Virus record (IMG/VR): IMGVR_UViG_3300021511_000005
Location: 1 to 64,000 of that record
Source of the DNA: a virus
DNA: 64,000 nt
Strand: one strand, 5' to 3'
This document shows, piece after piece, positions 32,839-40,788 of this stretch (within the stretch, counting starts at the first letter, position 1; every line of letters begins with the position of its first letter). The translations under genes were made by a program, and so were the position numbers. The notes under the pieces were generated by a model. The model saw only the letters and a list, made by a program, of their open reading frames with translations, was not told where the DNA came from and did not search any database.

Positions 32839-33308
32839 TCAAGCTCTATAACCAGCTCGTTGGCCTGATGGTCGAGGGCAAGTTCCGGCCGAGTTATGGT
32901 CGGCGCGGCGGCTTCAAGCAGTTTACGGCCAAGAACCTGGAGCAGGCCACCGAGCTGCTGGGCTATCTTGAGGACCGCGAGTGGGATCCGCTGGTCTACT
33001 TGGCGGGGGCGTTCGGCTCGCACAACTGGTGCTACCAGCCGAAGTTCGAGCGACTCTTGACGCCCCAGTACAAGAAGCTCTACCACACGAAGGAAACGTG
33101 GGCCTGGTGGTCGCTGTTGAAGCGAGAGGACCGTTTCGCGGACAAACCCGAGGGCGTTCACCCGGGTCACGAGATCATCCGTCAACGCTACTTCGCCACC
33201 CATGGTTCCGCCGGTGGAGAGCTGTGCCACATGGAGGGTTTCGCCGGGCGCTTCGATGCGCGATCCAAGTTCTGTCCCAGCTGTCCACGGAAGGACGATT
33301 GCCGATGA
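32793..33308 (+). CDS. Hypothetical protein upstream of the replicative helicase (C-terminal Cys cluster); start uncertain
   Basis: Fills the gap; CPSC...C motif; ATGA coupling at the 3' end. Confidence 0.65.
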   Translation: MSRLQGAGRLDPRGLIKLYNQLVGLMVEGKFRPSYGRRGGFKQFTAKNLEQATELLGYLEDREWDPLVYLAGAFGSHNWCYQPKFERLLTPQYKKLYHTKETWAWWSLLKREDRFADKPEGVHPGHEIIRQRYFATHGSAGGELCHMEGFAGRFDARSKFCPSCPRKDDCR

Positions 33309-36350: not shown

Positions 36351-37295
36351 ATGAGCAACGAACCCCCAATTATCGATGATCCGGAGGACGAGGCGGAGGT
36401 GGACCCCGAGGAGCTGAAGCAGCTCCTGGGACAAGCCCACGACCTGGGACTCCACATCAACAGCCGGGATCCCATCGAGATCGCGGCCCTGGTGGCGCTG
36501 GCCCAGCAGGAACGCGGATCGGAGCATCCGGTTCCCTGCTACGGCCTGAGCTACGACCCGACAGACAGGCGCTGCCGTGTTTGTCAGCTCCGCACCAAGT
36601 GCGCAGAGCTGGACCAGTCGCCGCGGGTGGAGGTATCCGACCTGACCCAACTTCAGGCGGTCCCGTGTGATGTGTGCGGGGGGTCGCTGGAGGTCGAGCT
36701 ACTGGACCGAGAACACCAGGAGGTTCGGGACTACGGATGCACCACCACCGGCTGTGCCAACACGTTGGGTGTCCAGTGTGGGTGGGAGACTCGCGCGGCT
36801 GACGTGGTCCGGGACATTGTGTTGCCCAAGGATGAAGTGGCCGAAGCGGAGCCGGAGGACGATTCCGTCCCCCCCTCGGAGGTCCCCCCTCCGGCTCCGC
36901 CGAAGCCCTCCAAGAAGAAGGCCAAGAAGAAGGCCAAGAAGAAGGCCAAGAAGAAGGCCAAGAAGAAGCCGAAATCCGACGCTACGCCCGCTCCCAAGAA
37001 GAAGGTCCAGGTGAAGGTGAAGCGGAAGCCGACCAAGCCAGCCAAGAAGAAGGCCAGCAAGAAGAAGACGGTCACGGTGAAGCCCAAGGGCAACGGCAAG
37101 CCCACGGGGAAACTGGTCTACATCTATGACGGCGAGCCCTACAACACGTTGACCCCGATCGCTGTGGCCATCAGCGGAAGCCGAAACTGGAGCGGCAAGC
37201 GGTTCTTCCGGGTCAAGGGCGAGCTGGAAGCGGGGACCACCCTGGAGCGCGAGTGGGAAGGCCAGACCTACTCCGTCCGCGTCGAGAAGGAGTAG
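36351..37295 (+). CDS. Multidomain putative DNA-binding protein: Cys clusters + histone H1-like KKKA repeats + RAMA/DUF2924-like C-domain
   Basis: CYG...CRVC...C and CDVC...CTTTGC; (KKKA)4; YDGEPYNTLTPIAVAISGSRNWSGKRFF. Confidence 0.7.
   Translation: MSNEPPIIDDPEDEAEVDPEELKQLLGQAHDLGLHINSRDPIEIAALVALAQQERGSEHPVPCYGLSYDPTDRRCRVCQLRTKCAELDQSPRVEVSDLTQLQAVPCDVCGGSLEVELLDREHQEVRDYGCTTTGCANTLGVQCGWETRAADVVRDIVLPKDEVAEAEPEDDSVPPSEVPPPAPPKPSKKKAKKKAKKKAKKKAKKKPKSDATPAPKKKVQVKVKRKPTKPAKKKASKKKTVTVKPKGNGKPTGKLVYIYDGEPYNTLTPIAVAISGSRNWSGKRFFRVKGELEAGTTLEREWEGQTYSVRVEKE
36912..36968. repeat. 12-bp tandem repeat AAGAAGAAGGCC x4.75
   Basis: Read directly; encodes KKKA repeats. Confidence 0.95.
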
Positions 37296-37298
37296 ATC

Positions 37299-37883
37299 AT
37301 GTACGAGGGCAACAACGGCCGGGTGGCAATCGCGATCCCGAGCTTCAACGACATCGTGTCTCGGATTGCCAAGTTCGAGACCTTCCAGGTGGCGGATCGG
37401 CTCTACAGCGCCGACTTGCTGATCCCCCAGCTCACCATCAGCGGTAAGGACCTGATCGCGGAGGCCGCGAGCTGCGCCGCGCTGATCCTCTACTGGGGCG
37501 TGGAGGCCGCGCGTGCGCGGCGTCACGTCGAGAGTGTGGAGGGCTCTTATCGCGGGTGGCGGGATCGGAAGTGGCTGGATCTGAAGTCCACGCCGATTGA
37601 CGACGGCAAGGGCGGGGTGAAGATCCCGTCTGATGCCGTGTGTGATAAGCAGTATCGCACTCACCCAGAGTATGGCGTCTGGCAGCAGCGGAAGGCCGCT
37701 GCTCAGGAGGCCGCCGAGTGTGCCGAAGCGGTCCACGAGGCGTTCAAGGCCAAGAAGGATCTGGTCAAGGTGATGGAAAATCTGATGCGTGACGAGGCCG
37801 GTGGCCCCTATTGGGTCTCGGAGCAACCGTCCGTTGAAGTCCCACGACAGCCCCAACTAGCAGGAGAACAGGCCAATGAGTAA
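37299..37883 (+). CDS. UvsY-like recombination mediator (putative)
   Basis: All-helical; YWG...A, KIPSDAVC...HPEY...AFKAKKDL pattern; adjacent to ssb and recA. Confidence 0.55.
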   Translation: MYEGNNGRVAIAIPSFNDIVSRIAKFETFQVADRLYSADLLIPQLTISGKDLIAEAASCAALILYWGVEAARARRHVESVEGSYRGWRDRKWLDLKSTPIDDGKGGVKIPSDAVCDKQYRTHPEYGVWQQRKAAAQEAAECAEAVHEAFKAKKDLVKVMENLMRDEAGGPYWVSEQPSVEVPRQPQLAGEQANE

Positions 37884-39441
37884 CGGAGATCCGTCCCAGA
37901 ACTATCCACAGCCGGGCCAGGGGCCGGGGGTCCACGGACATGCCCAAGCCGCACCGGACCCACAGCAAGGCTACCAGCAGCCGCAGGGTCAGCCGCAGGG
38001 TCAGCCGCAGGGTCAGCCGCAGGGTCAGCCGCAGTATCCCCAGGGGCCGCCACCGCAGGGCCAACAGGGGTATCCGCCCCAGCAGCCTCCGCCCCAGCAG
38101 CCCCAGCAGCCTCAGCCGTGGTTCGACCAGAATACGGGGCAGTGGGTTTATCCCCAGCAGCCTCCGCCCCGGCAGCCGCAGGGACCAGGGCCGTCGCAGC
38201 TCAGTCAGGCCGAGCTGGACGCCTTGAACGAGACTAAGCAGGAGCTGGACGATCGGACCAAGGACTTCGGGGACGTGGATTACTACAAGCCGAAGCAGCC
38301 CCAGTCCGTGGGTGACACGGTGGATAGCCTGGTCCGTCTGCTGCCGGCTTGGCCGGGCAAGGAGCAGACGGCTCAACCCGCCGGAATGTTCTGGAAGGAA
38401 TATGTTCACTTCATCTGGGTCCCGAGTCAGGAGGATCCGGGGAAGAATACCCGGATGGCCGTTCTCTGTGAGCGGGAGATGACGCCGGCGGGCTACGCGC
38501 CGGCGCCGTGTCCGGTCTGCGATCGGCGCGACTTGGCGGAGAAGGAAGGCGACCAGAAGATGGCTACGGCCCTGTCGGCGCGGCCGCGGTTCCTCTTTAA
38601 CGTGATCGACATGGAGGACAACAACCGTCACTGGAAGCAGGACAAGGCCACAGGGGCCTACACTTGCACCGCGGCGGTCGGCACCTTCGGGCCCGGGCTG
38701 ATGAAGAAGTTGATCAACATTTTCCATCAGCGTCAGAACATCGCGGACATGCGGTACGGTAAGAGCTTGGCCATCAGCACTAGCAAGGTGGGCAAGCAGC
38801 GACGGGATGTCCGTTACGACGCCTTGGACCACGGCGATCCGGGTCCCGTGCCTCAGGGGATGGAGAACATTATTCTGGTGGACCTGTCGCAGGTCACTCC
38901 CAAGAAGGACTACAACGAGGTGGCCGTGGCGATGAGGGTCACCTATCCGCCGCGGGACCAAGCTCCGCCGCCCCAGGGTTATCAGCAGCCTCAGGGTCCA
39001 CCGCCGCAGCAGGGCTATCAGCAGCCTCCGCCCCAACAGGGGCCACCGCCACAGCAAGGTTACCAGCAGCAGGGGCCGCCGCCGCAGCAGAGGCCACAGC
39101 CGCCCTACGGGAACCCCTATCCTCAGCAGGGCGGGCCGCCGCCGCAGCAAGGAGGCTATCAGCCTCCACAGCAGGGCCAGCAGCCTCAGCAGGCCGGCCC
39201 GCCGCCCCAGCAGCCTCAGCAGGCCGGCCCGCCGCCCCAGCAGGGATATCAGCCGCCTCAGCAGGCCGGCCCGCCACAGGGCCAGCCAGGGCCCCAGGGG
39301 GGCCCCCCGCCTCAGCAGGGCTATCAGCCCCCAGGAGGCTACGCCCAGCCGGCGGGGCCTCCTCAGCAGCAACAGCCACAGCAGGGGCAGCAGTCGGTCC
39401 CCTACGGTGAGCAGGGGCAGGATCCGGATGTCCCTTTCTAG
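37876..39441 (+). CDS. Single-stranded DNA-binding protein (gp32-like core) with long Gln/Pro/Gly-rich arms
   Basis: VRLLP...FWKEYVH...C...CPVC...RFLFNVID core; acidic C-terminal tip DPDVPF. Confidence 0.82.
   Translation: MSNGDPSQNYPQPGQGPGVHGHAQAAPDPQQGYQQPQGQPQGQPQGQPQGQPQYPQGPPPQGQQGYPPQQPPPQQPQQPQPWFDQNTGQWVYPQQPPPRQPQGPGPSQLSQAELDALNETKQELDDRTKDFGDVDYYKPKQPQSVGDTVDSLVRLLPAWPGKEQTAQPAGMFWKEYVHFIWVPSQEDPGKNTRMAVLCEREMTPAGYAPAPCPVCDRRDLAEKEGDQKMATALSARPRFLFNVIDMEDNNRHWKQDKATGAYTCTAAVGTFGPGLMKKLINIFHQRQNIADMRYGKSLAISTSKVGKQRRDVRYDALDHGDPGPVPQGMENIILVDLSQVTPKKDYNEVAVAMRVTYPPRDQAPPPQGYQQPQGPPPQQGYQQPPPQQGPPPQQGYQQQGPPPQQRPQPPYGNPYPQQGGPPPQQGGYQPPQQGQQPQQAGPPPQQPQQAGPPPQQGYQPPQQAGPPQGQPGPQGGPPPQQGYQPPGGYAQPAGPPQQQQPQQGQQSVPYGEQGQDPDVPF
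37978..38034. repeat. 12-bp tandem repeat CAGCCGCAGGGT x4.75
   Basis: Read directly; encodes QPQG. Confidence 0.95.
39178..39243. repeat. 30-bp tandem repeat x2.2 (QQPQQAGPPP)
   Basis: Identical units at 39178-39207 and 39208-39237. Confidence 0.9.
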
Positions 39442-39445
39442 GGGA

Positions 39446-39565
39446 GGGGTCTCCACGGCCACCCGTTGGCTCTGACGGGTGGCCGATTTGCCGCGGCCAC
39501 CATAACGACACGGATCGAACCTGCGGTCTGTGTGCCAGGTCGGAGGCGTGCAAGGTGGAGACCCC
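39446..39565 (+). ncRNA. Candidate structured RNA (multi-stem, unknown family)
   Basis: 11-bp closing stem enclosing two 10-bp hairpins, one with G-U pairs; intergenic between ssb and recA. Confidence 0.5.
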
Positions 39566-39648
39566 GCCGGATGCGGGTCCGCCGCCCGTCCCCACAGAAC
39601 ACCCAGCCCAGGACCCCGAGGCCCTGGAACGCATGATGCGAGGTACCG

Positions 39649-40788
39649 ATGGCTAAGTCAGCCACCGCCCAGAAGAAGGCCACTAAGAAGACCACCAAGA
39701 AGGCCACCCCCAAGCGCAAGGGTGCGGGCAAGGTCAGTCCCAAGAAGCGGGCCACCCAGCTCCAGGTGATGGTGGAGGCCCGCGAGTTCCTGCAGCAGAA
39801 GCACGGCAAGGGTGCGGTTCGGATGATGAACGAGGTGGACAGTACCATCCCGGGCTATATCTCCACGCAGTCCTTGGCGTTGGACAAGCTCGTAGGCAAT
39901 GACGGGGTCCCGCAGAGTCGGATGATCGAGATCTACGGGCCGGAGGGGATCGGGAAGTCCACCATCAGCGATCATCTGATTGCCCAGGTCCAGAAGCTCG
40001 ACGGTGTGGCCTATCTGTGGGATACGGAGAACGCGCGGGACCACCGTTACATGGACCAGGTGGGCATCGTCCGCGGCCGCGCTATCCGCGTTGAGGCGGA
40101 CACGGTGGAGGCGGGTTACGCTATCGCTCAGGACACCATCGACTGGCATCTGGCCCATTACCCAGACCGGCTGGGGATCTGGGTCTGGGACACAGTGGCG
40201 GGAACGCCCACTGAAGCGGAGTTGGACCCCAGCAAGTCCAATGAACGCTTCGGGCCGGCGAAGATGATCCGCGGCATGTGCCGTGTGTTGACTCAGAGCC
40301 TCAAGAAGTCCCGCTGGATCTTCGTGGTGGTCAACCAGACCTATATCACGCAGAAGGGGCACTTCCCGGTAGTCAAGACCTACGGCGGTGAGGGGATCCC
40401 CTACTACAGCTCTGTTCGGCTTGAGTGCGGCTACCGGAGTCCGCAGTGGCGGACGACAACGTCCAAGGAGGCCGGCGAGGATCCGATTGGGCAGACCATC
40501 ATAGTCAAGTCGTCTAAGAACAAGACCTTTCCACCGTTGCGGTCAGAGAAGATCTACATCCGCTACGGCGAGGGCATCGATAACGTGTGGACGTTGTATG
40601 ACACGCTGTGTGGTGCCGGGATGATCACTCAGGCTGGGGGCTGGTACGAGCTGGACTGGCCGGAGGTGGCGGGCAAATACCCCAAGTGGCAGAGCGGCTA
40701 CGACGGGTTGAAGCAGCTCTGCTCGGAGAACGTGGATCTGTGGAGAGACGTGATTCTGGGCTATCAGGCGCTGGAGAAGAGGCGATGA
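39649..40788 (+). CDS. recA: RecA/UvsX-family recombinase
   Basis: ISTQSLALD, IEIYGPEGIGKST Walker A, WDTE, VWDTVA Walker B, VNQ, GGEGIPYYSSVRL, KNK..PP, AGGWY motifs. Confidence 0.95.
   Translation: MAKSATAQKKATKKTTKKATPKRKGAGKVSPKKRATQLQVMVEAREFLQQKHGKGAVRMMNEVDSTIPGYISTQSLALDKLVGNDGVPQSRMIEIYGPEGIGKSTISDHLIAQVQKLDGVAYLWDTENARDHRYMDQVGIVRGRAIRVEADTVEAGYAIAQDTIDWHLAHYPDRLGIWVWDTVAGTPTEAELDPSKSNERFGPAKMIRGMCRVLTQSLKKSRWIFVVVNQTYITQKGHFPVVKTYGGEGIPYYSSVRLECGYRSPQWRTTTSKEAGEDPIGQTIIVKSSKNKTFPPLRSEKIYIRYGEGIDNVWTLYDTLCGAGMITQAGGWYELDWPEVAGKYPKWQSGYDGLKQLCSENVDLWRDVILGYQALEKRR

Follow-up and report, generated by a model that had tools for sequence, protein, structure and literature searches.

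What is the function of the strongly folded RNA that lies between the ssb and recA genes of this virus? The window analysed here, 64 kb in length, is the first part of a 109-kb uncultured virus record that is about 97% complete. Between the stop codon of its single-stranded DNA-binding protein gene and the start codon of its recA gene are 207 nt, and within these a stretch of 120 nt (39446–39565, plus strand) folds into a three-way junction. A preliminary description took the 207 nt for a gap between genes and saw in the fold a regulatory switch, processing element, ribozyme or small RNA that controls the ratio of SSB to RecA. We arrive at a different reading, to which we give a probability of roughly two in three: the end of ssb is a −1 programmed ribosomal frameshifting (PRF) cassette that makes two SSB isoforms, and the fold is its 3′ stimulator.

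The folded RNA and its stability

The gene upstream of the fold (ssb, 37876–39441, plus strand) encodes 521 aa in the 0 frame and ends with the stop codon TAG (39439–39441). It was assigned to the ssDNA-binding protein family phrog_1192 (E = 6e-8), and a Pfam search of the gene gave no match. The protein has a gp32-fold core (aa ~125–365) between long P/Q/G-rich arms, and its C-terminus reads …DPDVPF. When an AF2 model of the core (pLDDT 85.5) was compared with known structures using Foldseek, the RB69 and T4 gp32 cores were retrieved (2a1k, 1gpc and 8gme; E = 7.6e-9 to 5e-7, probability 1.00). Judged by this model, the upstream gene is that of a gp32-type phage SSB, the gp32 core being an OB fold with a zinc-binding subdomain. 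The only protein retrieved with the SSB core as query was P0105, which has a comparable C-terminal end (…PPF). The architecture is an unusual hybrid, in which a gp32-type core is flanked on either side by very long low-complexity arms rich in P, Q, G and Y, and the C-terminal DVPF tip is like that of bacterial SSBs. In some SSB orthologues, one of the low-complexity arms contains an additional Cys-rich insert (QWTGT.CSVCGQPQFTSPGGNTC..GHGG). L012, L013 and L015 (e.g., L015:1281–2813) have it in the C-terminal linker and L014 in the N-terminal arm; the SSB of the window is without this insert.

The gene downstream of the fold (recA, 39649–40788, plus strand) encodes a RecA/UvsX-like recombinase (Pfam RecA, E = 1.8e-34; phrog_97 UvsX-like, E = 1.5e-50). 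We did not detect a terminator or a promoter between ssb and recA, and the two genes are therefore probably on one mRNA. An intrinsic terminator was considered as an identity for the fold and rejected, as there is no hairpin with a U-tract and there are 0 terminator-like sites in 39000–40000.

To compare the locus with others, RecA relatives were collected first, and metagenome and viral contigs were then scanned for their loci. The layout of ssb, spacer and recA was common to 12 distinct loci, of which the closest one compared (L010) has 78% RecA identity. Three hydrothermal-vent metagenome runs carry the stretch or parts of it; the sequence is identical in all of them and has no variants, so that no population covariation can be obtained from these runs. 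Contigs that are identical over the covered part of 39380–39720 come from three vent metagenome studies (2018, 2018 and 2025), and the whole of this stretch is spanned by the contig of one study only, which may be that of the source sample. The phage seems to recur in the hydrothermal-vent habitat.

The minimum free energy (MFE) structure of 39446–39565 is a three-way junction with −74.8 kcal/mol, compared with −49.4 ± 3.9 kcal/mol for 200 dinucleotide shuffles (z = −6.45), none of which was as stable. The multi-branch junction is the one originally proposed, and its four helices are where they had been placed. P1 (GGGGTCTCCAC, 39446–39456, paired with GTGGAGACCCC, 39555–39565) and P2 (39456/7 to 39466/7, paired with 39474/5 to 39484/5) each have 11 perfect bp. 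P3 (~39487–39494 with ~39546–39554) is present and weaker, and P4 (ACACGGATCG, 39508–39517, with CGGTCTGTGT, 39524–39533) has 10 bp including two G-U pairs. When folding was restricted to the RNA that follows the ssb stop, the pair probabilities were at least 0.88 for P1, at least 0.94 for P2 and at least 0.91 for P4. The minus strand formed a weaker fold (−66.0 kcal/mol), which fits the argument, made earlier from the G-U pairs, that the plus strand is the RNA. Two further elements that had been pointed out also exist: a second GGCCACC (39495–39501) and a CAGGT (39536–39540) that is complementary to the P4 loop. The pseudoknot between this loop and CAGGT does not hold up, because a 2-nt linker would have to span the 10-bp stem, which is sterically implausible given known pseudoknot geometry.

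We then have to ask if the structure belongs to a known class. No Rfam family was matched at its gathering score in the whole window, and at E ≤ 10 over 39300–39750 only chance-level matches were seen, of which RNaseP-T scored best over the element, with 11.1 bits compared with a gathering score of 60. Scans for terminators and for tRNA or tmRNA were empty at the element, in agreement with the initial observation that it has neither a U-tract nor tRNA arms. The minus strand contains a string resembling GGTTCGATCC, which was considered as a T-arm; no T-arm is formed by it. A repeat of the REP/MITE type was also rejected, since the element is single-copy in the 109-kb record and the P1 arm motif is not enriched. 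A search of viral contigs for an exact match to P4 found none.

The shape of the fold is not conserved among the relatives. RNAalifold on a codon-anchored alignment of their ssb–recA spacers gave about 0 and no consensus structure among relatives from L010 outwards, a scope that stops short of the closest RecA relatives (P0002–P0009, 74–87% identity) and chiefly limits what can be said on covariation. Even L010 is without P2 and P4. What it has in common with the window is a P1-like closing helix alone, and the shared outer 7–8 bp of this helix are identical in sequence and thus uninformative on covariation. In a test for long-range pairing, cognate arms differed weakly from non-cognate arms (p = 0.03).

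A fold with no shared shape could be incidental, arising where Gly- and Pro-rich codons of a GC-rich sequence are complementary by chance, and have no function of its own. The composition of the region is compatible with this: local GC is 0.62–0.84, compared with 0.54–0.67 in recA, and pairing is favoured where Gly codons lie opposite Pro codons. Since the region is protein-coding, as described below, stability was tested with the peptide held constant. The native sequence of the window was more stable than 60 of 60 recodings sampled from codon usage (z = −4.07) and 60 of 60 in which codons were permuted (z = −3.72), which argues against a mere by-product. The family is shifted as well, with mean recoding z values of −1.65 and −1.72 across the 12 loci, compared with −0.13 and −0.25 for 33 control segments from recA (Mann–Whitney p = 0.002). 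In 9 of the 12 loci, no stretch of recA from the same phage is as stable as the 130 nt that follow the ssb stop, and the fold of the window likewise surpasses all 130-nt segments of its recA. Four relatives (L012, L013, L015 and L029) show no excess stability over their recodings. On balance, we consider a functionless by-product highly improbable. Our reading is that a strong barrier after the slip site is under selection, and that it is provided by lineage-specific structures and not by a conserved RNA family.

A Cys4 peptide encoded in the −1 frame

Far from being a non-coding gap, the 207 nt are occupied by an ORF in the −1 frame of ssb (39438–39656, plus strand; LGEGSPRPPVGSDGWPIC…QDPEALERMMRGTDG*) that has no start codon and runs for 72 codons, from CUA (Leu) to TAA (39654–39656). 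None of the codons ATG, GTG and TTG precedes its Cys cluster in the window. The −1 frame is open over 62–78 codons in all 12 loci and contains 0 internal stops, compared with 1–5 in the other frames. Variation is concentrated at third positions (codon-position entropy 0.89, 0.84 and 1.45 in the −1 frame), and the same alignment has 1095 synonymous codon differences in this frame compared with 278 and 181 in the other two. We regard coding in the −1 frame as almost certain. The extension is overlooked altogether by gene-calling programs, so that the apparent gap invites misreading as a non-coding RNA.

The encoded peptide has the consensus PFLG..(linker)..PP...DG.P.C[WR]G....DRTC..C.....C...TP..AG.PPV....QDPE.LER.LRG. 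Its central part is a Cys4 module (C-x10-C-x2-C-x5-C, P.C[WR]G....DRTC..C.....C; 39489–39551) that is encoded inside P3 and P4, and in the alignment of extension peptides the four Cys and the DRT are invariant. The module is a putative metal-binding site (Zn or Fe-S). The C-terminal motif (QDPEALERMMRG, 39609–39644) has L, E, R and R invariant and D, P, E and G nearly so, and synonymous variation is seen here in the codon alignment. The last codons of this motif carry the recA Shine-Dalgarno sequence GAGGT (39640–39644), and the recA ATG is located 8 nt inside the end of the ORF. The extension stop overlaps or abuts the recA start in 12 of 12 loci (TGATG, ATGA, TAATG, TAAATG and similar).

When 1.84 billion cluster representatives were searched with a profile of the extension, no more than 15 proteins matched, as is expected if gene callers miss an ORF without a start codon. 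There is no Pfam family for the extension, and its AF2 model is of low confidence (pLDDT 66). A complex prediction for the extension with RecA scored 0.00, which counts neither way.

The conserved peptide also bears on the proposal of a free-standing non-coding RNA, be it an sRNA, a riboswitch, a ribozyme or a Y-RNA-like molecule. It had been suggested by the stable, branched fold of the plus strand and its G-U pairs, but such an RNA is hard to reconcile with a region that codes for a conserved peptide, that has no Rfam match, promoter, terminator or tRNA-like element, and in which neither a conserved structure nor covariation was found. We find it hardly credible, and the non-coding part of the preliminary description is dropped here. 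The part that stands is a plausible action in cis on the expression of ssb and recA. A link to RecA, if there is one, would come through the overlap of the extension stop with the recA start and not through an RNA switch.

Modules of the same kind were seen in other proteins. In the window, the Cys4 module (P.C[YW]G....DR.C..C.....C) occurs in-frame in a DUF2924 protein (36537–36602, gene 36351–37295), which starts with a DDPEDEAEVDPEELKQLL stretch resembling the QDPEALERMM end of the extension, and it is also C-terminal in another ORF of the replication cluster (33225–33302). Two to three tandem C-terminal copies are present in P0090, P0096, P0102, P0097 and P0093, viral proteins of 400–476 aa that have acidic linkers between the copies and belong to no Pfam or PHROG family. 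The Atlas cluster nearest to the N-domain of P0090 has the gp32 Pfam in 16% of its members, which is a language-model lead only; comparison of P0090 and P0097 with the SSB core by BLASTP and hhalign was not significant. The free-standing forms of the Cys4 peptide (L014:2606–2998 and, as a second one, P0089) have an N-terminal Trp-rich repeat (WDGxxW...). W..NGQWVP or WDG..W motifs are found in the SSB linkers of L014, L016, L022 and L029, and a similar Trp motif (NTGQWVYP) is near the N-terminus of the SSB of the window. The Trp-rich motifs may be involved in self-association or docking.

The slippery heptamer and the proposed frameshift

How could ribosomes enter a frame that has no start codon? 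The last two sense codons of ssb, CCU (Pro520) and UUC (Phe521), are part of a slippery heptamer, C_CCU_UUC (39432–39438, plus strand), which conforms to X_XXY_YYZ. The heptamer is followed by a 7-nt spacer (UAGGGGA, 39439–39445) that includes the 0-frame stop. C_CCU_UUC or C_CCU_UUU is found at the ssb end in 11 of the 12 distinct loci, and L019 has A_CCU_UUU, in which the U_UUU tetramer is kept. In the recA genes of these phages, CCU accounts for 14% of Pro codons and C for 34% of third positions, and the heptamer frequency expected from codon usage at x-Pro-Phe ends is 0.047; as the relatives are not phylogenetically independent, binomial significance figures based on it are overstated. All −1 motifs of this type have been measured in E. 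coli (Sharma et al, 2014; PMC4066793). Those of the form H_HH.U_UU.Y were among the most efficient in E. coli, a ranking that may not be that of the host, C_CC.U_UU.C was named as a high-level −1 frameshift motif, and U_UU.C was second among the tetramers (PMC4066793).

In L010, L012, L015, L017 and L022, a stop in the −1 frame lies 1–2 codons upstream of the heptamer. From the sequences, the general entry to the −1 frame would be from the ssb frame only. A natural control is provided by L014, where ssb ends with T_CCG_UUC_UAA and the −1 frame is closed after 7 codons. In this locus, the Cys4 peptide comes from a separate ORF of 130 aa that starts with ATG (2606–2998) and is located 76 nt downstream.

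This ORF and P0089 show that the peptide exists in free-standing versions, and it might be made in the same way elsewhere, as a separate small protein by non-canonical initiation or by termination-reinitiation, in which case the fold would not be a stimulator. Internal initiation is possible in some of the relatives, as an ATG, GTG or TTG is in frame before the Cys cluster in L012, L018, L022 and L029, and in L015 a TTG overlaps the stop. The other 7 of the 12 loci, however, have none of these codons before the first Cys, and there is no conserved near-cognate start. The peptide is also conserved from the junction on (PFLG, then PP...DG.P). Synthesis as a separate protein would leave unexplained why the rare CCU and the preceding C are kept in 11 of 12 loci, and why the heptamer is lost exactly in L014, the locus with the ATG ORF. 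We therefore think separate synthesis quite unlikely, and expression of the extension by −1 PRF very probable.

The position of the fold relative to the heptamer is that of a classical −1 PRF stimulator, which is expected to begin about 5–9 nt 3′ of the slippery site. Here the distance from the heptamer to P1 is 7 nt, and P2 adjoins P1 without a gap, so that the 5′ side has an uninterrupted run of 22 paired bases. A ribosome whose P and A sites are occupied by CCU and UUC therefore faces this run at its entrance. We are inclined to identify the 39446–39565 fold as the frameshift stimulator, with somewhat less assurance than for frameshifting as such. A strong structure at this place could also be an intercistronic mRNA element, for example a 3′ stabiliser of the abundant ssb mRNA, an RNase processing site or a ribosome brake into recA, that sets the ratio of SSB to RecA without any part in frameshifting. 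An extremely stable structure between two genes of very different dosage needs, probably on one mRNA with no terminator or promoter between them, would suit such a role. Against this, the fold lies inside a translated frame and its 5′ edge is canonically spaced from a conserved slippery site, and the recA Shine-Dalgarno sequence and ATG are about 80 nt beyond the fold and not clearly sequestered. As an account of the fold, we hold an intercistronic element to be unlikely, although the role is compatible with that of a stimulator and the two are not exclusive.

If the fold is a stimulator, the cassette would work as follows. Most ribosomes would read …Pro-Phe and stop at UAG, yielding the 521-aa SSB with a free DVPF tip. 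For a fraction of the ribosomes, the base of P1, backed by P2, would be an obstacle at the mRNA entrance and make them pause while CCU and UUC occupy the P and A sites, and the paused ribosomes would slip to CCC and UUU and go on in the −1 frame for 72 codons. Slippage itself and its rate are what we infer from the elements assembled here. The predicted trans-frame product has 521 + 72 = 593 aa. In this isoform, the DVPF tip would be buried, and a putative Cys4 metal-binding module and the conserved QDPE.LER.LRG end, which is predicted to be a short conserved helix, would be added. Shifted ribosomes would terminate on the recA start codon, and the long isoform and RecA may consequently be translationally coupled; the overlap of stop and start in 12 of 12 loci suggests that ribosomes completing the extension could reinitiate on recA.

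Two additions to the cassette can be envisaged. In T4, gp32-type proteins bind their own mRNA. Free SSB or the phage Hfq-like protein might melt or lock P1/P2, so that the fold would be a tunable switch and not a constitutive stimulator, and pairing of the P2 3′ arm (39478–39484) with the second GGCCACC (39495–39501) could contribute to this. We judge such a switch very unlikely; if it existed, the ratio of long to short SSB and the coupled translation of RecA would track ssDNA in the infected cell. The other addition concerns the 5′ side. A G-rich Shine-Dalgarno-like run (GGGGCAGGA, 39414–39422) is located 9 nt upstream of the heptamer, and stronger runs are present in L017 (GGGAGGTGA) and L019. 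Enrichment of such upstream runs is weak and inconsistent (median percentile 0.105), and the G-rich run may act as a 5′ stimulator of the dnaX type, or it may just reflect the Gly codons of the SSB tail.

Comparison with known recoding systems

Programmed frameshifting in phages is textbook knowledge for tail chaperones and capsid proteins. SSB proteins act through their C-terminal tips as organisers of replication, recombination and repair. If frameshifting occurs as proposed, an exposed, host-like DVPF tip on one isoform and a Cys4-buried tip on the other would split the ssDNA coat between two sets of partners, and the ribosomes that make the long SSB would be delivered onto the recA start. 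Full-text literature searches gave no paper on frameshifting in an SSB gene, and SSB is not mentioned in a 2016 recoding review or in the PRFect paper. The proposed mechanism is a standard −1 PRF cassette; what is new is that it serves a gene of the gp32-type SSB class, that its heptamer is of the GC type and that the junction is large.

The E. coli dnaX cassette consists of the heptamer A_AAA_AAG, an upstream Shine-Dalgarno-like element and a downstream stem-loop, and it makes its isoforms in a fixed ratio. The tau/gamma system resembles the one proposed here in that a replication protein exists in two isoforms, slippage is on X_XXY_YYZ and a stable structure is located a few nt downstream. 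Upstream Shine-Dalgarno-like G-rich runs are a further, weak resemblance that is seen in some of the relatives. The outcome is different: in dnaX, a stop follows the shift almost immediately and the protein is truncated, and the shifted frame of ssb would instead add 72 aa. The elements also differ: dnaX has A_AAA_AAG and a simple hairpin, and the virus has C_CCU_UUC, a 120-nt three-way junction and a gp32-type SSB.

The T7 gene 10A/10B site (G_GUU_UUC) likewise has U_UUC at the A site near the end of a gene and gives a minor, C-terminally extended isoform (PMC5009743). In contrast to the SSB proposed here, the T7 product is a capsid protein, its stimulatory elements are more than 200 nt downstream, and no metal-binding domain is added. 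In the IS3-family orfA-orfB cassettes, the −1 stimulator of IS911 is a three-way junction made up of stem-loops (PMC5009743), and IS911 thus shows that a multi-branch structure can drive bacterial −1 PRF. IS911 has no sequence or structural homology to the element described here, its heptamer is A_AAA_AAG and its product is a transposase fusion. The autoregulation of T4 gp32 is alike in that a gp32-type SSB has a structured element in its own mRNA that is involved in its expression. In T4, this element is a pseudoknot in the 5′ leader, where binding of gp32 controls initiation, whereas the fold described here is 3′ of the stop codon, a position that fits recoding.
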